Assembly: GCA_963818475.1 (NCBI GenBank)
Contig: CAWFSF010000006.1
Location: 1,120,001 to 1,184,000 of the forward strand
DNA from: Nitrospirota bacterium
Lineage (GTDB): Bacteria; Nitrospirota; UBA9217
DNA: 64,000 nt
Reading direction: 5' to 3'
The notes below the pieces were generated by a model, which had not been told where the DNA came from, ran no database searches, and saw nothing but the letters and a program-made list of their open reading frames with translations. Below, one piece after another: positions 10,911-48,046 of the stretch (its first letter is position 1; each line of letters opens with the position of its first letter). The position numbers and the translations under genes are program-made.

Positions 10911-13067
10911 CTACCCGGTTTTAACCCGCTTTACATCGATCACCCCTTTAATGCCTTCAATGTTTTTTATCACCTTGTTCAGATGTTCCACGTCCTTGAT
11001 ATCAAGCGTAAAATTGAGCGTAGCTCCCTTGTTCTCATCCGTTATTGCCTCGGCATGCGTGATATTTGCCTCCAGCGCGCTGATCGATGAAGAAACGCTG
11101 GCAAGGAGGCCGGGTTTGTCTATGGTACGGACCGTTATCTTCACCGCGTGCGCTATGGTCTGGAAATCTCCCCAGGTAACTTCGACCAGACGGTCCTTGT
11201 CAAAAGTGAGTTCACCAACATTCGGACAATCAGCCGTATGAACGGAAACTCCCCTGCCGCGCGTGATAAAACCGACTACCTGGTCTCCGGGAACGGGATT
11301 GCAGCATTTTGAGAGATGGATCATCATATTGTCAAGCCCGCTGATCTTCATCCCCCCGCTCCCGTCGCCTGCGGATTTGACATGCTTGGGAGCTGGTTTT
11401 TTCACCAGCGGTTCCACATGCTGCTTGTCCGGCGCGAGCCTGTTCGCGACCAGGTGCGGAGAAACCTTGCCATAGCCGATTGCGGCAAGCAGGTCGTCGA
11501 TCGTATTATGTGATAGCTCTATGGCAATCTGAGGGAGCTCCTCCGATTTGAGGACCTTGGCGGGGTTCAGGTCGTGTTTGCGGAGCTCCTTTTCGAGCAG
11601 TTCCTTGCCGAGCAGTATGCTTCTCCTGCGTTCTTCGATCTTAAGCCAGGCTTTGATCCTGGTCCGCGCTTTTGAGGTTTTGACGAATTTAAGCCAGTCG
11701 CGGCTCGGCGTATGGCCGGCTTGAGTGATGACTTCGACCTTATCCCCATTTCGTAGCTGGTGCTTGAGGGGAACGATCTTGCCGTTCACCTTGCCGCCAA
11801 CGCACGAGTGTCCGATGTCCGTGTGGATGCTATACGCGAAATCGACTGGTGTCGAACCCTGCGGCAGCTCTCGCACATCTCCCCGGGGCGTAAAGACATA
11901 CACGACCTCCGGGAAAAGGTCGCCCTTGACCGTGTCCATGAACTCTTTTGCGTCAGGGAGGTCCCGTTGCCACTCCAGCAATTGCCGGAGCCAGGCAAAT
12001 TGCTGCTCTTCCCGCTGGCTTACCGGGGATTTTTCCTTGTACCGCCAGTGTGCGGCAATGCCCTCTTCGGCAAGGCGATGCATTTCATCGGTCCGGATCT
12101 GGAACTCCACCCGTTCTCCTTTGGGGCCGATAACCGTAGTATGGAGCGACTGGTAGAGGTTCGACTTGGGTACGCCGATGAAATCCTTGAACCGGCCGGG
12201 GACCGGGGTCCAGAGCGAGTGGATGAGGCCCAGGATGGCGTAGCAATTGACCTTGGTATCGGTGATGATCCGAATCGCGATCAGGTCATAGATGTCGTCA
12301 AAGGAGATGCCCTGCTTCTGCATCTTCTGATAGATGCTGTAGAAGTGCTTGGGCCGACCCTTTACCTCGCCTTTATATCCGTGTTCCGCGAGTTGGCCCC
12401 GCATGGTTTCCATGAGCTCGTTTATATAGGATTCGCGCTCGATGCGGCGCTGGGAGACCTTTTGCGCCACATCCTGATACGCCTCGGGGTTGAGATACAT
12501 GAATGAAAGGTCTTCAAGCTCGATTTTGATCTTGGAAATACCGAGGCGGTTGGCGAGTGGCGCGTAAATATCGAGCGTTTCCTGTGCAATACGCCGCTGC
12601 TTTTCAGGAGCGAGCGACTTCAGCGTACGCATGTTGTGGAGCCGGTCGGCCAGCTTGATCAGGATGACCCTGATGTCCTTGGCCATGGCGACGATCATCT
12701 TGCGAAAATTATCAGCTTCGCGCTGTTCCCGGCTCTGGAGCTCCATGCGGCTTAGTTTTGTCATGCCTTCGACCAGCATGCCCACTTCCTCGCCGAACAG
12801 GCTCTTGATCTCCTCCTGCGTGGAGGTCGTATCCTCGATCGTGTCGTGGAGCAGGCCGGCGGCAACAGTGGCGGCATCGAGCTTGAGGTTGGCGAGAATG
12901 GCCGCGACCTCGATGGGATGGATCAGGTAGGATTCCCCGGAGAGGCGCGTTTGCCCCTGATGGGCCTTGGCTGAAAAGATGTAGGCGCGCCTCAGCAGGT
13001 CCACATCCGCGTCGGGATGATAGCTCTGAATGCGTTCTACGATGTCTTCGAGCCTGATAGCAGGCAT
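10911..13067 (-). CDS. rel: Bifunctional (p)ppGpp synthetase/hydrolase
   Basis: HD motif LHDTIED, YQSLHT, EFQIRT, TGS and ACT domains. Confidence 0.96.
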   Translation of the reverse strand: MPAIRLEDIVERIQSYHPDADVDLLRRAYIFSAKAHQGQTRLSGESYLIHPIEVAAILANLKLDAATVAAGLLHDTIEDTTSTQEEIKSLFGEEVGMLVEGMTKLSRMELQSREQREADNFRKMIVAMAKDIRVILIKLADRLHNMRTLKSLAPEKQRRIAQETLDIYAPLANRLGISKIKIELEDLSFMYLNPEAYQDVAQKVSQRRIERESYINELMETMRGQLAEHGYKGEVKGRPKHFYSIYQKMQKQGISFDDIYDLIAIRIITDTKVNCYAILGLIHSLWTPVPGRFKDFIGVPKSNLYQSLHTTVIGPKGERVEFQIRTDEMHRLAEEGIAAHWRYKEKSPVSQREEQQFAWLRQLLEWQRDLPDAKEFMDTVKGDLFPEVVYVFTPRGDVRELPQGSTPVDFAYSIHTDIGHSCVGGKVNGKIVPLKHQLRNGDKVEVITQAGHTPSRDWLKFVKTSKARTRIKAWLKIEERRRSILLGKELLEKELRKHDLNPAKVLKSEELPQIAIELSHNTIDDLLAAIGYGKVSPHLVANRLAPDKQHVEPLVKKPAPKHVKSAGDGSGGMKISGLDNMMIHLSKCCNPVPGDQVVGFITRGRGVSVHTADCPNVGELTFDKDRLVEVTWGDFQTIAHAVKITVRTIDKPGLLASVSSSISALEANITHAEAITDENKGATLNFTLDIKDVEHLNKVIKNIEGIKGVIDVKRVKTG

Positions 13068-33657: not shown

Positions 33658-36600
33658 CTAATCCGCCTTCTTTTTTGTAAAGAAGTTTTCCAGGTCATCA
33701 ACGATCGTGTACACGACCGGGATCACGACCAGCGTGAGCAGCGTCGAGGTTATCAGTCCGCCGATCACGGCAATGGCCATGGGGGCACGGGTCTCTGCGC
33801 CTTCTCCGAGCTTCAGCGCCGTGGGCAGCATGCCGAATACCATGGCGGCCGTGGTCATGATGATCGGTCGCAGCCTGACCGGTCCCGCCTTGAGCAGCGC
33901 TTCTTCGCGGCTCATCCCCCGATGCCGGAGCGTTATGGTATAGTCAACCAGCAGGATCGCGTTCTTGGTCACCAGCCCCATGAGCATGATAACGCCGATG
34001 AGGCTGAAGATCTGATCCGCTCTCCCGTGATCAGGAGCAGCAGCCCCATGGCGCCGATGAGGCTCACGGGCAGCGAGAACATGATCGTAAAGGGGTGGAC
34101 AAAGCTCTCGAACTGGGCAGCCAGGATCATGTAGACCATGATGACGGCGATGATCAACGCAAAAGAGATGTTTTTGAACGAATCCAGCATAGCATCCGCC
34201 ATGCCGACGTAACGGGTTGAAATATCCGGTGACCCGTTCTTTGCAACGATCTGGTTCAGATCGTTGATGGCCTGGCCCATGGGTTTGGTCTTGTCCGTAC
34301 CTGCAAACAGGGTTGTTGCCCGCTGTCGATTGTAATGCATGATGACCGTGGGCCCCTTGCCGGTCTGGATCGACGAGACATCGTGAAGGTGCACAAGCTC
34401 GCCTGTTGAGGAACGGACCAGCAAGCGCTTCGATGTCGGACGGTTTGTCGCGTTCGGCGCCGAATAGACGCGCTGTTATATCATATCGTTCGCCTTCTTT
34501 TTCGTCCTTGTACTTTCCAACGATCTCGCCGCCGATCAGGGTGTTGACCGTGCCGCCGATGGACGATGCGCTCACGCCGAGATTAGCGGCTTTCTCGCGA
34601 TCGATCCTGATGCGCACTTCCGGCTTGCCGATCTCGATCGAGGTGTCGGTATCCACAATGCCGGGAAGCTTCGAAAATGCATTTTTGATCGCCAGTGGTC
34701 CGTTTGTTCAGGTCTTCGAGGTCCCTGCCCTGGATCATAAGCTGGATCGGCACTGACCGCATACCGCCTCCCACCATGGCGATCATCTCAACCGACGCCT
34801 TAAACTCGGGCTGTCCAGACACGCTGTCGCGGACCTCCTTCATGGAATCGATCTGGATGATATTCCGGTCTTTCCGTTCCTTCATGTTGACAAAGATCCT
34901 GCTTTTGTTGACGTCAGGCGTCAGGTCCGAACCGGTAACATAGAAGGTGCTCGCAATCTCCGGTCTTTGCCGGAGCTCTTCATCGACCTTTTTCATGACC
35001 GCATCGGAGCGATTCAGTGAATAGTCTATGGGAGTTTCAAGTCTCACCATATACCTGCCCTGGTCCTCGGCGGGCATGAATTCCTTGCCCAGAATAAACC
35101 AGAAGAATGACGATTCCTCCTGCGACGCTCGCCAGTGCGAGCAGAATGACCTTCCAGCGGTTCCGCAATGCCAGAGCAAGAAGCGGATTATACAGGTCGA
35201 AGACCTTGTCGAATCCTTTTTCAAGGAACATATAGACCTTGCCGTGCTTCTTCCGGTAGCTCAGAAAGCGCGACGTCATCATGGGAGTGAGCGTCAGCGA
35301 TACAAAGAGCGAAATGAGCACGGCGATCGTCACGGTGATGCCGAACTCGAAGAAGAACTTTCCTACGATGCCCTTCATGAACGCAACAGGCACGAACACG
35401 GCCACAATGGACAGGGTCGTCGCCATGACCGCCAGTCCGATCTCCGAGGCGCCCTCCCGGGATGCCTGCAGGGGCGACTCCCCTTCTTCCATCCTCCGGT
35501 AGATGTTCTCAAGCACCACGATCGAGTCGTCGATAAGAATGCCGATCGAAAGCGACAGGGCGAGCATGGTCATGATGTTCAGGGTGAACCCGAAGGCCTG
35601 AATGAACGCAAAGGTGGCGATGACCGACGTCGGCAAGGCAACTGCGCTGATCAGGGTGCTCCTGACGCTTCTGAGGAAAACAAAGATGATCAGCACCGCC
35701 AGGATGGCGCCGAGCCACAGCGATACCTGCACGTCCTCGATCGAACGGCGGATGAATTTGGACTGGTCGAAGGTAATGTCGAGATGCATGCCCTGGGGCG
35801 GCTTGACCTTTGCAACGGCGTCTTTCACCCGTTCGGCAACAGCGACCGTATTCTCGCCGGACTGGCGCTTGACCGACAGGCCGACGGCGCTCTTGCCGTT
35901 GAACCGGGTAAGGGAACGTTCGTCTTCAAGCCCGTCTTCGGCTCTGCCGATATCGCGCAGCTTGATCAGTCTGCCGTGACGGTAGGCGATCACCATGTCG
36001 TTGAACGCTTCAGGCGTTTCGAACTCGCCCTTGGTCTTTACGATGTATTCGGTCCGGGAATTCTCGATCCGCCCGCCCGGGATCTCGCGGTGTTCCCGCC
36101 CCAGAGCCAGCTTGATATCATCGGCCGTCAATGAAGCAGCGTTCATCTTCGCTGCGTCGATCCAGATGCGGACCTGACGGTTCCGGCCGCCGCTGATCGT
36201 CACCGACCCGACCCCGGGGATCTTTTCGATGTCGCGTTTCAGGACCTTGTCCGCATAATGGGTCAGTTCCTTGATCGAGCGGTCGCCGGAAACAGCGATC
36301 CAGACGATCGGCTGGTCATCGGGGCTGATCTTTTCGATGATCGGCGCATCGGTGTCTTTCGGCAGCCGGTTCCTGATGGCGGCGACCTTGTCCCGGACAT
36401 CCTGTGCAGCCTGTTCCAGATTGCGTTCGAGGTGGAACTCCACCGTGACGATGGAGTACTCTTCCATGCTGCGCGAGGTAATGGCCTTGACGCCGCTGAT
36501 GGTGTTCACGGCCTCTTCAAGGACGTCCGTGACGTCGACCTCCATGATCTCGGGGCTTGCGCCCACCAGCTTCGTGGTGATGTTCACCACCGGGAAGTCG

Positions 36601-36719
36601 ATCTTGGGAAAGAGATCGAGGGCAAGGCGCGGGAAGGAAACGATGCCGAACACGATCAGCGCAACGCCGATCATGGTCATGAAGACCGGACGTTTGATGG
36701 CTATTTCAGGAAGTCGCAT
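33658..36719 (-). CDS. RND efflux permease, AcrB family (several frameshifts)
   Basis: IKRPV, IDDSIVVLENI, GLVTKNAILLVD, RLRPIIMTT. Confidence 0.92.
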
Positions 36720-38897: not shown

Positions 38898-38902
38898 GGC
38901 AA

Positions 38903-38964
38903 TAATTAACTAACTGCTTAATTAAATGAAGCCGCATCATACTAGGGAGGAGTATTGTTGTCAA
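38903..38964 (-). promoter_or_regulatory. sigma70 promoter and candidate TetR operator
   Basis: TTGACA-N17-TATGAT (38936-38964); inverted repeat TAATTAA-N8-TTAATTA (38903-38924). Confidence 0.6.
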
Positions 38965-39052
38965 GATGAATTTACGGGAAGAACAGTGGGAGGATCAAGC
39001 AGTTTGCCACATAAAGCACATAGGTCACTAGATGCAACAGGGCAAGAATGTT

Positions 39053-39160
39053 TCGCGCGGAGACGCGGAGGCGCAGAGACTGCAAAAGACAAAGCTTTGT
39101 ATCTGGTTTAATACAGCACCAATGATTTTGACTTCTCTGCGCCTCCGCGTCTCCGCGCGA
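39053..39160. repeat. 9-nt-period palindromic element with perfect 27-bp arms
   Basis: TCGCGCGGAGACGCGGAGGCGCAGAGA (39053-39079) and its exact reverse complement (39134-39160). Confidence 0.85.
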
Positions 39161-39181
39161 GTACGCCTTATGGCTCCAGGT

Positions 39182-39847
39182 TTATATAATTTTTCCAACC
39201 AACTCCGCAAATGAGTGAGAACGATATGCGATAGTGCCGATGATCGGCACGCCGGAAAGTTCCTGGATGACCGCAGGACTGGTGGCTTCGGCCAATCCCT
39301 GCTGCCCGCCCTGCCCGTCGTTGATGACGACGCCGGCGATCATCAGCCTCCGGGACCGGAGCGCATCGATCGTCAGGAGCGTGTGGTTGATCGTGCCGAG
39401 TCCCGGCCGGGCGACGATCAATACCGGCAGGCCCAATGCTTCGGCAAGGTCGAGAAAGAGATAGCCCTGCGCAAGCGGCACCATGATCCCCCCTGCCCCT
39501 TCAACGATCATGAACCGGTGTCTCTGCGACAGCGTTTTGAAGGACTGGAGTATCTTCCCCGGGTCGATCGTTTTCCGTTCTATCTGTGCGGCCACGGAGG
39601 GTGCGACGGGAGCCTGGAAACGATAGGGATTGACGAGTGACAGCGGATCGCGAACTGCGGCTGCCCGGATGAGTGCTTCGGCGTCGCGTGGTATGAGTTT
39701 GCCTGAACGTGATCTGCAGCCCGTTTCCGCTGGTTTCATGACGCCCACATCGATCTTTGCCGAGCGAAGGGCCTTTGCAATACCGGCGGCGACGTAGGTC
39801 TTCCCTACGCCCGTGTCGGTTCCGGTAATAAATAAGCCTTTAATCAT
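39182..39847 (-). CDS. bioD: Dethiobiotin synthase
   Basis: TGTDTGVGKT, KPAETG, VEGAGG, LGTINHTLLT. Confidence 0.96.
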   Translation of the reverse strand: MIKGLFITGTDTGVGKTYVAAGIAKALRSAKIDVGVMKPAETGCRSRSGKLIPRDAEALIRAAAVRDPLSLVNPYRFQAPVAPSVAAQIERKTIDPGKILQSFKTLSQRHRFMIVEGAGGIMVPLAQGYLFLDLAEALGLPVLIVARPGLGTINHTLLTIDALRSRRLMIAGVVINDGQGGQQGLAEATSPAVIQELSGVPIIGTIAYRSHSFAELVGKII

Positions 39848-39904
39848 GAGCGTAATTTCCTGAGGATAACAAAACAAAATCACGATTCCGGCGATTTCCG
39901 GCTG

Positions 39905-39956
39905 CTATAACGCGAAGATGAGCCCCGTCCCGTGGGGCTCGATCTTCAGGTTGGAT
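39905..39956 (-). mobile_element. Integron attC site
   Basis: ATCCAAC-N5-GATCGAGC...GCTCATC-N5-GTTATAG: canonical R''/L''/L'/R' spacing with one extrahelical base; overlaps the stop of the upstream ORF. Confidence 0.85.
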
Positions 39957-40465
39957 CATTTTGGCTTGAAAGGAGTTTGTTTTGGACTATGAGTCTGCGC
40001 ACTCCCTGCTTCTTGTGATTTCAATCGCTGTTGCGGTTGTTGTTGCGTTTGTAATGTGTCTTTTTGGGGATGCTTGAGAATATATTTATCGAGTACGAGA
40101 TGAGTAATCAAGTAGACAATTATGCCGGTGATTATAGGGATAAGGAATTTTACGAAATGTCTTTGAATAAAGTTATATGGTTTTTTTATTGTATTTAATA
40201 TTCGCTTACGCTTCAACGGATATTTGAAATAGATTTGGCATTGATAATAACCATCATCTGTGAATACGACAGCATGATGTTGTATATCTCTAAAATAGCC
40301 ATATTGGACTAAGTTGGATATGGCATTCTTAATATCGGTCGGATGAGTATTGGGGAATGTTATATCAGTTGACAAGCCGATAGTTATGGAATGAATAGCA
40401 ACAGTATGAAAACGTAATATCTCCTTTTCAAGTTCTGGTAAATCGCTGATCGGTTTTTTTATCAT
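39956..40465 (-). CDS. Cassette-borne hypothetical protein with C-terminal TM helix
   Basis: AT-rich 169-aa ORF between two attC-like sites. Confidence 0.7.
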   Translation of the reverse strand: MIKKPISDLPELEKEILRFHTVAIHSITIGLSTDITFPNTHPTDIKNAISNLVQYGYFRDIQHHAVVFTDDGYYQCQIYFKYPLKRKRILNTIKKPYNFIQRHFVKFLIPIITGIIVYLITHLVLDKYILKHPQKDTLQTQQQPQQRLKSQEAGSAQTHSPKQTPFKPK

Positions 40466-40478
40466 AGGTTTATTCAGG

Positions 40479-40536
40479 TGCCAACCTCGGGTGAGGGGCG
40501 CGGGTTTTGCAACCCTCTTGAGCCGAATAGTTAGAA
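40479..40536 (-). mobile_element. Degenerate attC site
   Basis: TTCTAAC...GCTCAAGA...GTTGGCA, 58 bp, directly after a stop codon; imperfect stem. Confidence 0.62.
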
Positions 40537-42240
40537 TCAGATCTTCCAGACTTTCTCGTACGCCTCAACCGCAAGTGCCTGGGTCCTCTTCGCAATATCT
40601 GTGGCTGTCCAGTCCGCGGCGCCATCAATGGAAGTCTGCAAAGGAAAATGCGCGGCCCGCAGGATACGCTTCTTCTCCTTGAAAGGCTTGTTACCAAGCT
40701 TTGAGTTCATGTCCACTGATACAAGAATCAAATTCCCGAGTTGGCCGATGATCTCTTCTGTAAAATTGCCCGTACCGATAGCGCTTTGGGGAACCAAGTG
40801 TTCGATGGTCATTGCATCGTAGTCAGTCGTTACTGCGGTTTTCTTGGCCTTGTCAAAACAGACTAGTATGTACTTCACCAGACTGCGTTGCTTGGTAATC
40901 TCGTCGGTGTATAAGATCTGCGGGAACAGAGCCTTGACCTCTTCGAGAGACGGTACGCGTTTACGCAACTTTTCCTTTAGTTCCTTAAGCACTACCAGCG
41001 CACTGTCCTGATTGTGAGACTCAAACAGTCGGCGGCCAAGCGAAGCGTACATTTCAGAGATACCGCCGGACGATCGTTGCGATGTGACAGCCGTGAAGAG
41101 AAAATGAAATTTCTCAATCGCCACTAGCGCATCTTCAAGGTGCCGCATCTTGATTGTCTTTCCACGGTAAGATCGCAGGAGCGAGAGCACGCACGGTGTC
41201 TGCTGTTGAACTCTGAACAACTGCAGAGCCCCGAGAGCCTCGGGCACGCGCCGCTCCTGCTTTGACCATTTCCCGAAAGTGATCTCGTGAATCATCCGGT
41301 AGAGGGTGGCGTCCGTTACAAGTGAGTCAAGAAAAGCCTTAGCTTCCGTTTTGGTAATCCGACGCTTTAGCGCCTTGAACAAAGTTTTGGCCGAGAGGTA
41401 ATCATAACGCGAAAGCCAGAAATGGTGGATGAACGCATCTGTCTCTAAATCGCAGGCTGCAGCCTCAATCGTTTCGAGCATTCGGCGCCACTTCACCTTT
41501 ACCGGGTCGATGGACGCGCTCTTGCTCTTGAGGTGTTTGTTGACATGATTCTTGACTAGGTCCGTTAGGCTCAAATCCTTACCGCGCGTGTTTAGTGTCT
41601 CGAAAATGATGTAAGCATCATCCTCATCGTCAAGTTTGACAAATATCACCTTCAGATTAAGCACGGCGTCGCGGATGTCGGTCAGTCGTAGTTGTATTAA
41701 TTTCTTCTTCTTGTCATCCGATAGGCTGGCATCGCTTTCCAGACTCTCGCTCACGCCATCAATGAGTTTAGTAAGTTGTGTGAATGCATCTTGTAGGTTC
41801 TGCTCTTCCGAAAGAGGGTTCACCGGCACTTCGGGGGCACCCCACTTAAGGATGTGGTCTTGGAAGAATGGATAAGATGTTTCCGTTGAGAGAATGAATT
41901 CAGGTTTATTGTCGATATTCTTGCGCTCTATTAATCCATGGATTCCTTGCGCCAGATCGTTGAGCCCATGTTTTGCGAGGGCGTTCCGGAGAACGGCGAG
42001 CAGAAGCGTGACGGTTGTCAGTCGCTGCTGTCCGTCTACAATGCCAAAGCGCTGCTTGCCATCTTTGAAAACCACCATTGAGCCGATGAAGTAGTCCAGT
42101 GGTCTGTCCTTGATGACATCGTCCCAGAACTCCTGAACATTATCACGAATCCAAGAATATGGCCGCTGGAACCTCGGAATGCGATAGTAGCCTGACGATA
42201 AGAGCGTCCTTAAATCTTGATCGGTCGATTCAATCTTCAC
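40537..42240 (-). CDS. DUF262/DUF1524 (GmrSD-family) nuclease
   Basis: IPRFQRPYSW, DGQQR, FETLNTRG, IEHLVPQ...LGNL...N.KLGN HNH-like C-terminus; GGAGG RBS with GTG start. Confidence 0.9.
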   Translation of the reverse strand: MKIESTDQDLRTLLSSGYYRIPRFQRPYSWIRDNVQEFWDDVIKDRPLDYFIGSMVVFKDGKQRFGIVDGQQRLTTVTLLLAVLRNALAKHGLNDLAQGIHGLIERKNIDNKPEFILSTETSYPFFQDHILKWGAPEVPVNPLSEEQNLQDAFTQLTKLIDGVSESLESDASLSDDKKKKLIQLRLTDIRDAVLNLKVIFVKLDDEDDAYIIFETLNTRGKDLSLTDLVKNHVNKHLKSKSASIDPVKVKWRRMLETIEAAACDLETDAFIHHFWLSRYDYLSAKTLFKALKRRITKTEAKAFLDSLVTDATLYRMIHEITFGKWSKQERRVPEALGALQLFRVQQQTPCVLSLLRSYRGKTIKMRHLEDALVAIEKFHFLFTAVTSQRSSGGISEMYASLGRRLFESHNQDSALVVLKELKEKLRKRVPSLEEVKALFPQILYTDEITKQRSLVKYILVCFDKAKKTAVTTDYDAMTIEHLVPQSAIGTGNFTEEIIGQLGNLILVSVDMNSKLGNKPFKEKKRILRAAHFPLQTSIDGAADWTATDIAKRTQALAVEAYEKVWKI

Positions 42241-42274
42241 TTCAGTCCTCCATCTTCGTACAGGGTGTACGTTT

Positions 42275-42337
42275 CGCTAATATTGACAAGCTGAAACGCG
42301 CATGCGTAGCGAATCTCTGTCGAGCTTTTTGTTAGAA
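42275..42337 (-). mobile_element. Degenerate attC site
   Basis: TTCTAAC-N5-GCTCGACA...TTTCAGC; R' eroded to ATTAG with a lengthened spacer. Confidence 0.62.
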
Positions 42338-42341
42338 TCAA

Positions 42342-42998
42342 CTAGCTACGGCGACCCTTCCAGAGAGGTAGATTGATCAGGCCAAACAACGTGCCTTTGC
42401 TTGAAAGAATACCGCGGCAAGTAAGCTCAATATCAGCTATCAGTGCATCAACTCTTTCTTGAATAGGGTCTGGGTCTTCGCCCTCCCAAAGGATACTCTG
42501 AAGTTCACGAAATTTATTATGATAAGTTTCCTCATCTTCCTCGGCTCTAAGATAGCTGTCTTTGCGACGCCAAAAGCGCCGAGAGGCAAGGAATATTTCG
42601 TTTATGACTTTACTCAAGTCATCAAATGGTTTACTTTCCGTGGTGCCGATCTGTGCCATGAATCGGTAGCGTAAGGCGTGTATCCGGCTGAAAAGTTCAA
42701 GGTGCTTGTTGTAGCGCTCTACGACAACATAAGCTTGGTCTAATGCCTCCTTATCCTCGGGCGACTCATTAGAATCCGCTTTCCGCGTGGTACCTTCGCC
42801 TCCAAATCCGAAGGGACTACGCATAGCATGAATCACGTCTCGGGCTTGATAGAAGAGCGCAAGAACTTCCTCTGCCAGCTCCATACGGCGCTTTCCGACG
42901 TGCTCACGACGCCATGCGTCAATCCCGAAGATCGCGGCAAGTGATGCTATCGTGACGGAAGCGTTCTGTATTACGGATGTCCAGTCGCAGGTTTGCAT
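42342..42998 (-). CDS. Cassette-borne hypothetical helical protein with N-terminal TM helix
   Basis: 218-aa ORF; IASLAAIFGI.AWRR, MRSP motif. Confidence 0.75.
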   Translation of the reverse strand: MQTCDWTSVIQNASVTIASLAAIFGIDAWRREHVGKRRMELAEEVLALFYQARDVIHAMRSPFGFGGEGTTRKADSNESPEDKEALDQAYVVVERYNKHLELFSRIHALRYRFMAQIGTTESKPFDDLSKVINEIFLASRRFWRRKDSYLRAEEDEETYHNKFRELQSILWEGEDPDPIQERVDALIADIELTCRGILSSKGTLFGLINLPLWKGRRS

Positions 42999-43038
42999 AG
43001 TAGTTAACCAGGTGCTTACCAGTTAAGGGGTGGCTCCG

Positions 43039-43085
43039 GGGTCGGGTCTTGAAAAAGCAGTTTCTTATATCTCAAGACCTGACCC
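43039..43085. repeat. REP-like hairpin GGGTCRGGTCTTGA...TCAAGACCTGACCC
   Basis: 14-bp arms with 1 mismatch and a 19-nt loop. Confidence 0.75.
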
Positions 43086-43551
43086 GATTTCGTCGACCGA
43101 ATAAATCATTGTAAAGAGAGCTTATGTCTCCTTTTGCCTTGAAGTCGGAAAGACTGATCCTGCATTTTTTGTCGTCTTGTCGGCCCTTAATTGGCGACTG
43201 AGAAATGATTGATGTGCGTTTTTTATTGTCCATTGTTCGGTATGAAAGTGAAATTGAATCTGCACTATAATGAATGAGAAGAAGAACTACTGTTCCGTTG
43301 GGGTTGTTGATGAGGGTTCTATGTACATCCCAATGAGAACATTTTCCCTCATATATACGCGCCTTAAGCTGAACATATTTAATTGAATCATCCACTTTAA
43401 GAATTACATCGTATCCAAAGGTGTCATGTTCCAGTCGCGCGATCTGCAATTCTTTTCCATTGGAGGCGGCATGTAATGCCAAGTCCCCAAGCATTCTATA
43501 CTCAGCGATGAGTTCGCGAAGTTTTGAGTTCGATTCGAGAATACTTTTCAT
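43072..43551 (-). CDS. Cassette-borne PD-(D/E)XK-like nuclease
   Basis: E...D.FGYD.......YVQLK motif; ATG 19 nt after the attC R' box. Confidence 0.7.
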   Translation of the reverse strand: MKSILESNSKLRELIAEYRMLGDLALHAASNGKELQIARLEHDTFGYDVILKVDDSIKYVQLKARIYEGKCSHWDVHRTLINNPNGTVVLLLIHYSADSISLSYRTMDNKKRTSIISQSPIKGRQDDKKCRISLSDFKAKGDISSLYNDLFGRRNRVRS

Positions 43552-43569
43552 GCTGAACCTCTGTGTGTT

Positions 43570-43628
43570 GCCTAACATGCTGGTCGCACCGTCTTTTTAG
43601 CGCGTCGCCGTGGACCGGCAGGTTAGTA
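43570..43628 (-). mobile_element. attC site (59 bp)
   Basis: TACTAAC-N5-GGTCCACG...TGCGACC-N5-GTTAGGC. Confidence 0.78.
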
Positions 43629-43662
43629 GTCACATGCCCCAACAAGGTGTCGGGCCGAAAAT

Positions 43663-43691
43663 ACAGTAGCATGGATTGTAGAGGTGGTCAA
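43663..43691 (-). promoter_or_regulatory. Candidate cassette promoter
   Basis: TTGACC-N17-TACTGT with extended -10 TG, pointing into the array. Confidence 0.5.
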
Positions 43692-43721
43692 TGCATTTAC
43701 GCTAGAAAGGTTGCCCTGTGC

Positions 43722-44463
43722 CTAAAGCACCCTGCTGTCCAGATTGAACACCTGCCCGGACACATTGCGCATGAGCGAAAGGTGGTAGATAAAATCAGCG
43801 GTTTCTTGCGGGTCTGAAAATCTTGCCAAAGCGTGTTCACGAAGAATGCGGTCCTGTATCGATCCGGATATCGCCTTGCCCATATCAGTCGGAAGATAGC
43901 CCGGCAGAACAACGTTCACCTTGATGTTCTGAGCGCCCAATTCTTTTGCGCACGACTTGGTCAGGCCGATAAGTCCTGCCTTGGATGCGGAGTAATTCGC
44001 CTGCCCTTCCCTGCCTTGCAGCCCGACAATGGACGCAATATTAATGATATGACCGCCTGTTCGCCCATCCATGTGCCGCGCCACGCCACGGATACAATGA
44101 AACGCTCCGCTGAGGTTCGTATCGATCACCTGGTCCCACTGTTCCTCCGACATGCGAAGCAGCAGGTTGTCCTGTGTCAGGCCTGCATTATTCACCAGCA
44201 CATCAATGGTTCCCCACTGCTTGAGCGCCTGATCCACCATGTTCTGTACGTCATGAGAGACCCGCACGTCCGCTTTGAAGCTGAGTGGCATCACCGCCGG
44301 CTGATCTGACCGCATCGACGGTCGCACGGGCTGCCTGCTCGTTCTCGCGAAAAACAACCATGACGCGGCAGCCTGCCTTGCCGAATGTTGTCGCGATGAC
44401 CTTCCCGAGTCCGCGGGATGCGCCGGTAACAATGACGACCCGATTATCAACTGACGGGTTCAT
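43722..44463 (-). CDS. fabG: FabG-like 3-oxoacyl-ACP reductase (frameshift near 44280)
   Basis: TGASRGLG, NNAG.T.D, YSASKAG. Confidence 0.85.
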
Positions 44464-45623
44464 CCTGCATACCCTTTCTGCTTCAGCGCGCCAAAGGCAG
44501 CCAAAGCAGCATCTATGTCCGCAAAGGAATGCGCGGCAGTAACGGTCGTCCTGATCCGGGACGTGCCTTCCGCTACGGTCGGCGGTCGTATGGCTGATGC
44601 GAACACTCCGGACTCAAGAAGCAGCAAAGAAGCCTGCGTTGCTTTCTCAGAGCTTCCGATCATGACCGGAATGATCGGCGTTTCCGATTCACTGGTGTCA
44701 ATACCCAGGGTTTTCAATCCCTGCACGAACCGGTCACGGTTCAGCCAGAGCTTCTTTCTGCGCTCCGGTTCCTGCTCAACAATATCGAGGGCCGCCAGTG
44801 ATGCGGCACAGATCGCGGGAGGCAGGGCAGTGCTGAAGATAAAGCTCCGTGCGCTGTTCAGGAGAAATTCGATAAGATGCTTGTCTCCGGCTACATAGGC
44901 CCCAAAAGAGCCGAAGGCCTTGCCGAGCGTGCCCATCTGGATCGCTACGCGGCCTGTAAGGCCGAAATGCTCTGCTGTTCCCTTTCCCCCTGCTCCCAGC
45001 ACGCCCGCGGCATGGGCGTCGTCAACCATGAGCATTGCGTCATAGCGCTCTGGCAAGGGACGACCAGTTCCGGCAGCGGAGCGATGTCGCCGTCCATGCT
45101 GAAAACGCCGTCAGTCACGATCAGCCTGCGGCGGGCATGAGCGGTCTTCTTTAAGATATCTTCGACATGGTTCACATCCCTATGGCGGTAGACATAGACC
45201 TGTGCTTTGCTCAAACGGCATCCATCGATGATGCTGGCATGGTTCAGGCTGTCGCTCAGGATCACGTCGTCTGTCGTCGCCACAGCGGGAATGATGCCTG
45301 TGTTCGCGGCATACCCGGAATTGAACAGGAGCGCGGCTTCCGTTCCCTTGAACTCGGCCAGCCGTTCTTCCAGCCGGCAATGGAGCGACTCCTGTGCCGG
45401 AAACAAGGCGTGAAGCGCCTGATCCAAAACCGTATTGCTCCATGGCAGCGCAGGCAGCTTTCCGCAATGCCGGGTGATTGGCAAGGCCGAGATAGTCGTT
45501 CGAGCACATGAGTATGACGCGCTGGCCATTGATCATGACATGCGCGCCATCATCGGGTCCGGCGATCACCAGCCGCCTGCGAAGACCATGCTGATCGATG
45601 TACGAAAGCTCTTGTTCAAACAT
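44460..45623 (-). CDS. bioF: 8-amino-7-oxononanoate synthase (frameshifts near 45390 and 45055)
   Basis: [45 protein letters not shown]. Confidence 0.92.
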
Positions 45624-45637
45624 GCCTGTTCATCCTT

Positions 45638-45818
45638 AAAAAAGCACTTGGACACGGATTAACACGGATAAGAGCCGGATAACGGCGGATTATTTCTTTT
45701 ATAAGAGGTTCACCCAATAGGTGAATGCTTTGCTTTAGAATTTATCCGCGGTCGCTTAGAAGCGCCTACTTCTGGTAATCAGATGTTTCCGATTCTTCCG
45801 TGTCCAAATGCCGTTTTT
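45638..45818. repeat. CACGGAT-type palindromic element, copy 1
   Basis: TTGGACACGGATTAACACGGATAAG...TTCCGTGTCCAAAT; about 80 bp nearly identical to 46726-46807. Confidence 0.8.
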
Positions 45819-46642
45819 TGGTTCCTACCCGTGCGAACGAAAAGCTCCGGTGTCATGGCCGCGGAACACACGCCGACCCGGTCGATCATCACGCTCGTTT
45901 TTTCAAGATAGTGGATCAGGCTGTCCAGGTCGCGTCGCTCATGGTTCACAAAAAAGGCCCGTCCTCCATGCCTGTCGCCCTCTTGTTTCAAGAAAGGAAA
46001 GCGGACATAGCCGAAGTCCCGTGCAGCTATGTATCCGGCCGTGTAATCGGATTCGTCGGACCAGCAGAGCTCCGCCATCATTCCGGGCCCATGGGCCACC
46101 TTGGTAGCAAGGGCCAGGGCTTCGCGCGTCCGATGGTGCACAAGACCGACAGCGGCAAGCAGGCGGGTGATCTCGTCGAGCGCCGGGTCCGTCCAGTCGA
46201 AGCGCGATGCGCGGATGCCCCGCTCCTGGTCCGGTTCAAGGCGCTCGCCGGTGACAGCATCCATGATCATGGCGCCGCGCATGTTGGCACCCGAAGGCGC
46301 GGCGCCTCTACCGATCTGCTCCATGGCAATCCGGATCGCCAGGCTAGAGACTCCGACGGTCTCAAGGATGCGTGCAGCGGTTTCCCTGCTGCTTACGGGG
46401 TCTGGAACCTGGAGGGTGTAGAGATCGAGGCTGGCATGTTTCTGGATCAAGGCCGGATCGATTGCATCAATGGATAGGGTGGTCTGGTCCGGCCGCACTC
46501 CCCGATCCATGGCGCGTGCGATCAGCTCCCCGACCGTCCGGTCGATCCGGTCTTCCGGCACGATCCGTTCGGCGCCGCAGGCGTGGTGGTTGTTCTTCGT
46601 GGCGCGCATGCGAATGCTGTAGAGTTTTCCTTGCTTTATCAT
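45779..46642 (-). CDS. bioW: 6-carboxyhexanoate-CoA ligase
   Basis: YSIRMRA, GAERIV, MRGAM, REALALATKV, AELCWSD...YTAGY. Confidence 0.9.
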   Translation of the reverse strand: MIKQGKLYSIRMRATKNNHHACGAERIVPEDRIDRTVGELIARAMDRGVRPDQTTLSIDAIDPALIQKHASLDLYTLQVPDPVSSRETAARILETVGVSSLAIRIAMEQIGRGAAPSGANMRGAMIMDAVTGERLEPDQERGIRASRFDWTDPALDEITRLLAAVGLVHHRTREALALATKVAHGPGMMAELCWSDESDYTAGYIAARDFGYVRFPFLKQEGDRHGGRAFFVNHERRDLDSLIHYLEKTSVMIDRVGVCSAAMTPELFVRTGRNQKTAFGHGRIGNI

Positions 46643-46696
46643 GGTAAGAGAGTGCCGTGTTCTCAAAATGCAACGAATGAAAGCTATGGAAAATCA

Positions 46697-47025
46697 TTTG
46701 TACACGGAAGAAGCGGATTAACCTCAAAAAAGCATTTGGACACGGATAAACACGGATAAGAGCCGGATAACAGCAGATTATTTCTTTTATAAGTCGTTCA
46801 CCCAATAACTGAACCTACAAACGCAGTTGGCCGCAGATTTAGCAGATTTACGCAGATAAAATCAGGCATTCAGGATTAAAGAAGTTTCACCCCAGGGGTG
46901 AGTCTTTTATCGTGTTATGTAAGTTTTTATCCGCGTTTATCCGATTTTTCCGTGTCCAAATACCGTTTTCAGGCTGGTAACTGTCCGCCGTTATCCGTCT
47001 TTTATCCGATTTGATCCGTGTCAAA
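46697..47025. repeat. Nested CACGGAT/CGCAGAT palindromic elements, copy 2
   Basis: Multiple ACACGGAT/CGCAGAT units on the left and ATCCGTGT/ATCCGCG units on the right. Confidence 0.78.
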
Positions 47026-47062
47026 GATATGGATCCGATCCTGATTGATTCAAGTTTGCCCA

Positions 47063-48046
47063 TCAATGACGCAGCCCGAGGTCCTGTATCATCTTGAGAT
47101 CGTCGGCCGGATCCAGGCCGATCGTGGTGAGGTAATTGCCGATCAGGAAACCGTCTGCGCCTGCCATGAAGATGAGCGGATGGAGCGAACCCAGCGCAGC
47201 ACCCCTGCCGGCGCAGATGCGGATCTGTTTTGCAGGCAGCAGCAGCCTGAACAGGGCGATGGAAATGAGCGCCTCAAGCGGCGTAATGGCGGTTACCTTC
47301 TCAAGCGGCGTGCCCATGATCGGCATGAGGAAGTTGAGCGGTACAGAGTCAACATCAGCCTCCCGGAGCGCGAGGGCCATCCTGATCCGGTCCTCCATGG
47401 ATTCTCCCATGCCGAGAATGCCGCCGCTGCAGAGGGACAGGCCCAGGGCGCGCCCCTGCTGCAGGAGCTTGATCCGTTCGTCGAAAGAATGGCTGGTGCA
47501 GATGTTCGGAAAGAACTCGCGCGAGGTCTCGATATTGTGGTGGTAGCGGTGCAGACCGGCGCTCTTCAGATAGGCAAGCTGCTGCTGCGAAAGCGTGCCG
47601 AGCGTGGCGCAGGGAGAAAGGCCGGCATCACGCACGCGCCCAATCCCCTGCGCGATGTTCTCAAGGTCCTCGTCCGTGTCGATGCCGCGACCGCTCGTGA
47701 CGATGCAGAAACGCTTGGCGCCGTTCTTTTTGGCGCTCTCGGCAGCTTTGCCCATCTGATCGACGGAGATGAGCGGATAGACCGGAGCACCCGTGGAATG
47801 GTGCGACGACTGGGCACAGAAAGAACAATTCTCGCTGCAGGCTCCGGACTTAGCGTTCACAATGGAGCAGATGTCCACGTTGTTGCCGTGAAAGCGTTCG
47901 CGCACCCGGGTGGCTGTTGCGAACAGGTCCATGAGGTCGGCCCCTGAAGCATGGGAGAGCGCTACCGCGTCTTGATGATCAACAGCGCCGGCCTGCAGTG
48001 CCAGAGCTCCGGCACGGGCCAGGGTTTCTTTGAAGGAAGATTCCAT
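47063..48046 (-). CDS. bioB: Biotin synthase
   Basis: NAKSG.CSENCSFCAQS, YHHNIETS, CSGGILGMGE, GNYLTT. Confidence 0.96.
   Translation of the reverse strand: MESSFKETLARAGALALQAGAVDHQDAVALSHASGADLMDLFATATRVRERFHGNNVDICSIVNAKSGACSENCSFCAQSSHHSTGAPVYPLISVDQMGKAAESAKKNGAKRFCIVTSGRGIDTDEDLENIAQGIGRVRDAGLSPCATLGTLSQQQLAYLKSAGLHRYHHNIETSREFFPNICTSHSFDERIKLLQQGRALGLSLCSGGILGMGESMEDRIRMALALREADVDSVPLNFLMPIMGTPLEKVTAITPLEALISIALFRLLLPAKQIRICAGRGAALGSLHPLIFMAGADGFLIGNYLTTIGLDPADDLKMIQDLGLRH

Follow-up and report, generated by a model that had tools for sequence, protein, structure and literature searches.

An integron cassette array without an integrase gene was found in the window analysed here, a stretch of 64,000 nucleotides from an uncultured Nitrospirota bacterium (assembly GCA_963818475.1, contig CAWFSF010000006.1, positions 1,120,001 to 1,184,000; the genome is referred to as G000 and the contig as C6). 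The array lies between a fabG-like gene for a short-chain dehydrogenase/reductase (SDR) and bioD, within the conserved gene string bioW-bioF-SDR-bioD. We consider it probable (roughly 85%) that the element is a truncated integron, consisting of a cassette promoter, an attI-like site and four gene cassettes but lacking the integrase. The first-pass annotation of this DNA had already placed an array between fabG and bioD and had classed it as a CALIN, a name which in the available text of Cury et al. (2016, PMC4889954) stands for clustered attC sites that have no integron-integrase. Both the position and the class were borne out. The accompanying proposal, that cassettes had been integrated in trans at a housekeeping locus, was not supported in that form: the array starts with an integron platform head and not with bare genomic DNA, and what looks like an attI site is split in two, with the cassettes between its halves. 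The head and a fifth cassette boundary are additions to that annotation. The coordinates of all features are collected in Table 1.

Putative promoter and attI-like site at the head of the array

Directly behind the SDR stop codon the array opens with a head of 93 nt which resembles the region between the integrase gene and the first cassette of complete integrons. It contains a predicted promoter, made up of a -35 element TTGACC (43691-43686), a 17-nt spacer and an extended -10 element TGc-TACTGT (-10 hexamer at 43668-43663), followed by a crossover motif of the attI type, CTTG|TT (G 43643, TT 43642-41). Twelve copies of the head could be aligned: four from the bio locus, three others in G000 that head attC clusters and five that stand beside an intact intI gene. 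In all 12 the TTGAC of the -35 element and the TA of the -10 element were invariant and the rest of the extended -10, TGCTACTGT, was nearly so, while the spacer of 17-18 nt varied freely. About 25 nt past the -10 element each copy carried the motif (A/C)CTTG|TT, and the sequence after this motif was unrelated from copy to copy. This pattern looks like the expected signature of a cassette promoter joined to an attI-type crossover point.

The five copies beside an intact integrase gene came from G050, G064, G052, G038 and G067, where the start codon of intI is about 140 nt from the region homologous to the head. At the bio locus the 93 nt were conserved in the genomes G003 and G005 and in the metagenome locus L074, and were absent from empty sites. 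The homologous part begins some 20 nt past the SDR stop codon in all four bio-locus copies. Since the head is homologous to the intI-side promoter and attI region, the element is better described as an integron without an integrase than as a set of loose cassettes at a genomic site.

Searches with general tools added little to this picture. A promoter and terminator scan of 39100-47200 was uninformative, with 8 promoter-like sequences against 7.5 in shuffles and 8 terminator-like sequences against 8.3. Rfam gave no family for the head or the leader in 38900-47200, L074 and L177.

A core of 36 nt follows the promoter in G003, L074 and G067 and recurs inside the array of G004. Copies of 32-36 nt (…TAAACTGGTAAAGAACGGAAATCC) were located at L002 2285-2316 (G000, C3:52474-52505), L021 7295-7330 and L048 about 11395-11480. 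The core is also found upstream of a pair of genes for a 285-aa tyrosine recombinase and an IS91-like transposase near C3:52.5 kb. Small alternative hairpins can be drawn around it, and it has no Rfam match. The core could be the integrase-binding part of attI, or a leader RNA.

attC sites and cassette boundaries

The attC sites were assessed with two covariance models. R1 was built from 23 attC sites that all come from arrays adjoining an intact intI gene, in five related genomes, and contains no sequence of the window. Seven intI loci were fetched for this purpose; a repeat search of three of them gave partial attC families only, so that a scan for AAC...GTT hairpins was used instead and the hairpins on the array side of five loci were taken. 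R2 is a broader model of 62 sites. When the window was scanned with R1 with filters switched off, nine matches were obtained at E<=10. Three of the four attC-like sites of the first-pass annotation (sites A, B and D) were recovered with exactly the same ends, and the 64-kb window held no other significant match to R1 or R2. The fourth, annotated as 42275-42337, was significant with neither model. All four sites were confirmed to share one orientation, that of the minus strand and of the genes. The three significant sites are thus co-oriented within a few kilobases, with gaps of 0.5 and 3.0 kb.

The sites were also aligned locally with 57 distinct reference attCs, for which 1407 random pieces of the window served as background. 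The scores of site B (70) and site D (60) were reached by none of the background pieces, that of site A (26) by 0.6% and that of site C (25) by 1.0%. Site B agrees at 44 of 50 positions with one of the attCs in the complete integron of G067. Folding alone separated sites A (z -2.34) and D (z -2.22; -14.0 kcal/mol) from shuffled sequences, and left B and C at background (z -0.8). In the reference attC family itself 94.1% of 850 cells were paired compared with 71.8% in shuffles, compensatory changes occurred in 11 of 15 pairs and the covariation score was reached by none of 500 shuffles, all in an alignment that was fitted to the model.

In an attC site R''...AAC is followed by L'', where the top strand has one or more extrahelical bases on its 5' arm, and then by L' and GTT...R', a build which the alignment of the reference family matches. 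Site A shows this architecture in canonical form: R'' has 7 nt, the spacer has 5 nt, and one extra base is found in L'' on the 5' arm. Site B shows it with two mismatches in the stem relative to its closest relative, and it abuts the stop codon of the GmrSD cassette gene. Site D is atypical: it lies 5' of the first open reading frame and has its single bulge on the 3' arm. Site C departs from the architecture, with a broken stem and ATT in place of GTT as R' box; it starts 4 nt past the stop codon of c218. As annotated at first, three sites (A, B and C) overlap a stop codon or lie within 4 nt of one. The complementarity of cassette ends, also claimed at first, is literally present but amounts to GTT plus one or two purines and is weak evidence. 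Sites A, B and D are taken to be genuine attC sites, and site C to be at best a decayed one.

The fifth boundary, motif E, lies between c168 and c218. It ends at a crossover point G|TT (G 43008, TT 43007-06), so that the c218 cassette begins at 43007, and it occurs only once in G000. The same 22 nt follow the head in G003 (L021) and in L074, where they are continued by different cassettes. G064 carries a fragment of c218 (88% identity) which begins at this same G|TTAAC, has different DNA upstream of it and is followed by a toxin-antitoxin-like pair of open reading frames and then by an attC. Together, site D and c168 sit between the first crossover motif and motif E, where they replace 51 nt that are present in G003 and L074. 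From these boundaries c168 and c218 are taken to be separate cassette units.

At the other end of the array the R' of site A reads G|TTATAG, and the TTATAGCAGCC which comes after it would be the right half of the attI-like site. The right flank after site A is the same as that after the last attC in G003 and L074. As both motif E and this flank are shared, the cassettes lie between two halves of one attI-like site. L074 represents the minimal form: head, motif E, one cassette of 243 aa, an attC, G|TTATAACAGCC... and bioD. The R'' of its attC is complementary to the start of the cassette at 6 of 7 positions. Together with the c218 boundary in G064 and the six different arrays at this site, it identifies the cassettes as independent mobile units bounded at G|TT.

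The same site in relatives and the possible source of the integrase

A comparison of the fabG-bioD interval, proposed in the first-pass annotation as a check, turned up both empty sites and different cassettes. Ten loci of related genomes were fetched, and the order bioW-bioF-SDR-bioD was found in all eight that extend far enough; among 80 metagenome loci listed, the six with a BioD identity of >=80% were analysed. The gap between SDR and bioD is empty (6-10 nt) in G002, which belongs to the same genus, and in the metagenome contigs L075 and L076 (BioD 81-85% identical); the BioD identity of these three relatives is at the level of a genus. It measures 14-362 nt in six genomes of other genera. 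Inserts of 0.9-4 kb occupy it in G000, G003, G005, G004 (the same as L078, with 99.95% identity over 2181 nt), L073 and L074. According to pairwise blastn the six arrays at this site have in common only the two ends and two short motifs. R1 detected an attC directly before bioD in G003 (24.4 bits), L074 (30.6 bits) and L073 (26.1 bits), and a strong one in L078 (67.8 bits). In 68,216 bases of the relatives' bio loci the attC adjoining bioD in G003 was the sole R1 match at E<0.01. The arrays of the relatives contain 16 open reading frames, 11 of which have no Pfam family; four of the other five encode a ParE/antitoxin pair, a hexapeptide transferase and an IS200-like transposase, and the fifth matches HNH weakly. 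In the array of G003 (L021 8780-9806) the gene for the IS200-like Y1 transposase has its start and the sequence upstream of it directly duplicated over 115 nt.

Public sequencing runs were also inspected. No RNA run was among those listed, no run contained more than 9% of the sampled words, and the contigs of the four runs compared are those of relatives. In these contigs either the same flanks enclose different DNA, or motif E directly follows the head and the c168 segment is missing.

The window contains no tyrosine recombinase, in agreement with the first-pass annotation: the genome has 11 matches to PF00589 and 13 to TIGR02249, and none falls within C6:1120001-1184000. The search for intI in the whole genome, likewise proposed there, revealed fragments and no intact copy. 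No sequence of G000 exceeded the 265-bit cut-off of TIGR02249, the best segment reaching 105 bits, and tblastn with the IntI of G067 gave fragments only and nothing within 180 kb of the array. The 105-bit segment belongs to the 285-aa tyrosine recombinase at C3:51.4-52.3 kb, which was rejected as an integron integrase: it has 33% identity to IntI, lacks model positions 180-233 and adjoins the IS91-like gene. Two intI fragments stand beside arrays in the canonical divergent orientation. One (C6:1772159-1772560) has suffered an internal deletion that brings residues 12-65 next to 421-493, and is accompanied by eight attC sites; the other (C6:86408-86683) covers residues 150-241 and is accompanied by five. 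At least four smaller pieces occur elsewhere in G000. In the order, 28 of 64 genomes possess intI above the cut-off. None of the six genomes of the genus does, and the five besides G000, which are 65-92% complete, have fragments only.

Integron-derived sequences are abundant in G000. The R1 matches number at least 80 and form more than 20 clusters; this is a lower bound, given that scoring covered 150 of 2603 candidates and did not pick up site A itself. Three more heads without an integrase gene were found, each with a cluster of attC sites downstream on its own strand, at C6:762.7 kb, C6:1722.1 kb and C2:581.5 kb (L175-L177); the last of these leads a textbook array of at least three cassettes.

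How the array at bioD arose may be explained as follows. An integrase encoded elsewhere, either in another integron of the lineage or on incoming DNA, would have brought in circular cassettes at the attI-like site, at its G|TT, and would have cut them out again at the attC hairpins. Such activity in trans would lead sister genomes to carry different arrays at one and the same site. In G000 the array would by now be frozen and decaying, because no intact integrase is left and the local attCs are weak (10-37 bits, compared with up to 72.7 bits elsewhere in the genome).

It might also be thought that a complete integron (intI, promoter, attI and array) was inserted here, and that a later, clean deletion removed intI and its upstream sequence but spared the SDR stop codon. 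The loss of intI is indeed rampant in G000, where its fragments lie at six or more places and adjoin arrays at two of these, and two other heads in this genome retain the GCATATTAGT boxes which in relatives separate intI and the promoter. At the bio locus, however, there is no intI debris, the distance from the SDR stop codon to the head is only about 20 nt in all four copies, and no relative has intI at this site among the 10 genome loci and the 6 of 80 listed metagenome loci. We therefore regard this course of events as rather unlikely.

A different history, which we rate as improbable, is that there never was a platform and that free cassettes were inserted singly, by an integrase acting in trans, at a site between fabG and bioD that is not an att site (attG-type insertion). 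Integrase activity of the relevant kind is reported as an experimental result in the preprint 10.1101/2022.09.11.507474. The left junction in G003 and G005 reads TAG|TT, and the lack of any intI remnant at the locus would also be in keeping with this view. Insertion of this kind predicts a left junction without an att site, but here a 93-nt homologue of the intI-proximal promoter and attI of complete integrons separates the first cassette from the SDR stop codon. Moreover, the cassettes lie between motif E and TTATAGCAGCC, which act as two halves of one site. That the region is not derived from an integron at all, but is a generic variable defence-island hotspot with chance or terminator-like hairpins, is hardly tenable in spite of the restriction gene and of two sites that fold no better than shuffles, in view of model E-values down to 1e-8 at exact coordinates and on one strand throughout, the near identity of site B to an attC of a complete integron, the homology of the head to integron platforms and the c218 boundary exactly at G|TT.

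The truncated integron has difficulties of its own. It has to account for the arrival of a platform without intI about 20 nt past the SDR stop codon. It has also to account for the source of the integrase, as no genome of the genus has intI above the cut-off and yet the arrays differ between genomes whose BioD proteins are 94-97% identical. The activity of the promoter is deduced from its conservation only, and the generic promoter scan did not list it. As to the attC sites, C is not significant in either model, B does not pass the folding test, and D lies 5' of its gene and inside the head, and its bulge is not on the arm where the family rule would put it but on the other one, for which the proposed scheme gives no explanation.

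Genes of the locus and relation to known integrons

Table 1. Features of the array and its flanks in the window (position 1 is the first nucleotide of the 64,000; a dot marks a feature without strand)
Feature	Position	Strand	Basis
bioW	45779-46666	-	
SDR (fabG-like), upstream flank	43722..44450	-	PF00106 E 3.5e-47, from profile position 52 onward only; TIGR01830 214.6 bits, below the cut-off of 297.75
Platform head, 93 nt after the SDR stop codon	43629..43721	-	homology to intI-proximal promoter/attI regions
attC site D	43570-43628	-	R1 36.9 bits, E 1.8e-8; R2 36.4 bits
c168, PD-(D/E)XK/DUF4365-like, 159 aa from the second ATG (GAGG ribosome site)	43072..43551	-	Atlas features, a lead only
Inverted repeat, 14-bp stem, overlapping the c168 stop codon	43039..43085	.	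read from the sequence
Motif E, left half of the attI-like site, ending at G|TT	43006..43027	-	single occurrence in G000
c218, 218 aa	42342..42998	-	Atlas: unnamed clusters only
Site C, probable decayed attC	42281-42337	-	R1 10.5 bits, E 2.3; R2 8.8 bits, E 7.7
GmrSD-family type IV restriction endonuclease, 567 aa	40537..42240	-	PF03235 E 2.5e-36; PF07510 E 6.7e-18
attC site B	40479-40536	-	R1 18.5 bits, E 0.008; R2 23.6 bits, E 1.4e-4
c169, predicted membrane protein, 169 aa	39956..40465	-	GC 0.35-0.41
attC site A, last site	39905-39956	-	R1 30.9 bits, E 1.3e-6; R2 32.7 bits
bioD (dethiobiotin synthetase), intact	39182..39848	-	PF13500 E 1.4e-50, profile positions 1-192 of 198

According to the annotation of the window every gene of the region is on the minus strand, and in the direction of transcription the order is bioW, bioF (two open reading frames), SDR, c168, c218, the GmrSD gene, c169, bioD and a tetR-family gene. 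The GC content inside the array (39.8-43.6 kb) is 0.35-0.53, compared with 0.54-0.61 in the flanks.

The start of bioD is 57 nt downstream of site A, and the gene is single-copy, with one match in G000. On the minus strand the terminator scan predicted none between the array and bioD. As bioD is present once, is co-oriented with the cassettes and has no predicted terminator before it, co-transcription with the array is plausible. Given that the cassette genes and bioD point in the same direction, transcripts of bioD would most likely start at the promoter of the array itself, reach the gene by read-through from that of the operon, or arise in both ways.

Among the cassette genes, the one for a GmrSD-family protein is best understood. 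Both of its Pfam matches are above the respective cut-offs (PF03235 126.1 bits, PF07510 65.3 bits), and in PADLOC it matched Orf5 PDLC02699 (E 2.2e-174) and HEC-06 (E 3.7e-98). The products of c168, c218 and c169 had no match in Pfam, NCBIfam or PADLOC. For c168 a search of Atlas features gave a value of 0.98 to clusters automatically named PD(D/E)XK endonuclease and DUF4365. Of the 63 other genomes of the order, 2 contain c218, and these belong to another genus. No paralogues of the four cassette proteins were found in G000. The defence-like content mentioned in the first-pass annotation is hence justified for one cassette, that of GmrSD, and plausible for a second, c168. The inverted repeat at the end of c168 shares 40 nt with other contigs of the sequencing runs X1 and X4, which have other depths; it was rejected as a REP or high-copy repeat, since its core 12-mers occur only once or twice in the genome.

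Some of the flanking genes are disrupted. The N-terminal part of the SDR is out of frame in the present assembly, which at 44285/6 has one nucleotide more than the contigs of the four public runs. As those contigs lack the extra nucleotide, the frameshift is confined to this assembly. An assembly error may be behind it, and also behind the split of bioF into two overlapping open reading frames (44945-45056). An AcrB-like open reading frame at 35037-36719 spans only profile positions 3-545 of 1021. Taken together, the truncated or out-of-frame SDR, bioF and AcrB-like genes probably reflect indel errors of the assembly, the alternative being real pseudogenes. Between the stop codon of bioD and the tetR-family gene there is a near-perfect inverted repeat (39032-39182) with a stem of about 25 bp, for which Rfam gave sub-threshold matches to plant miRNAs only. 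Repeats of the kind found in it, of the type GACGCGGA and with a period of 8 nt, were also seen in the relative's locus L043.

The array is in many respects a CALIN of the known kind, and little about it is new in kind. As described in the available text of PMC4889954, CALINs have two or more attCs close together, co-oriented cassettes mostly without homologues in the databases and no intI nearby; half of them occur in genomes without intI, and for 95% no intI pseudogene can be recognised in the vicinity. They are common, but their origin is debated, and integrase loss, rearrangement and insertion at secondary sites are under discussion in the portions available of that paper and of 10.1101/2022.09.11.507474. 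The present array differs from such clusters in that it has kept a head of the promoter/attI type, is placed inside a string of biosynthetic genes with bioD directly behind the last attC, and varies in content between sister genomes. It shares its attC family and its head with the complete sedentary chromosomal integrons of the Nitrospirota genomes G038, G050, G052, G064 and G067 (intI 353-384 bits with TIGR02249), and with that of G067 also the 36-nt core after the promoter. Unlike these it lacks intI and the approximately 140 nt between intI and the promoter, and its attCs score 10-37 bits as opposed to 53-75 bits for most sites of the complete integrons. With the attG/SALIN insertions described in the accessible part of 10.1101/2022.09.11.507474 it has in common a chromosomal setting outside an integron and an expression that would depend on nearby promoters; in contrast to what is described there, its left end is att or platform sequence and not genomic DNA, and it has several cassettes and not one. 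The GmrSD protein resembles known type IV enzymes in having both domains in order (N-terminal DUF262/GmrSD_N, C-terminal DUF1524/GmrSD_C) and is unusual in being carried as a single integron cassette; its activity is predicted from the sequence. A literature search gave no paper on Nitrospirota integrons among the matches listed, the listed one of two dealing with Archaea, and was not directed at operon-embedded arrays as such.

What makes the element unusual is mainly its position. It is informative because the head is retained, because it is located within an operon and because every state of the site is represented among its relatives, which preserve the empty site, a minimal form with the head, one cassette and an attC, and six different arrays. 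At least some CALINs would accordingly be integrons that bear a platform but no integrase, and whose content was still turned over at a fixed site. A tentative extension, in which we have more doubt than trust, is that the lineage runs a 'distributed' integron: several heads without an integrase, each with promoter, attI and its own array, would be scattered over the chromosome (at least four in G000, one of them in the biotin operon) and rely on an integrase acting in trans, whose gene lies elsewhere or is present only transiently on incoming DNA. If this were true, bioD would be the permanent last gene of a cassette operon, and its expression would be set by the cassette promoter and by whichever cassettes happen to lie ahead of it. 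With a single-copy bioD behind a variable and partly defence-related array, both polarity and promoter dependence are directly testable.

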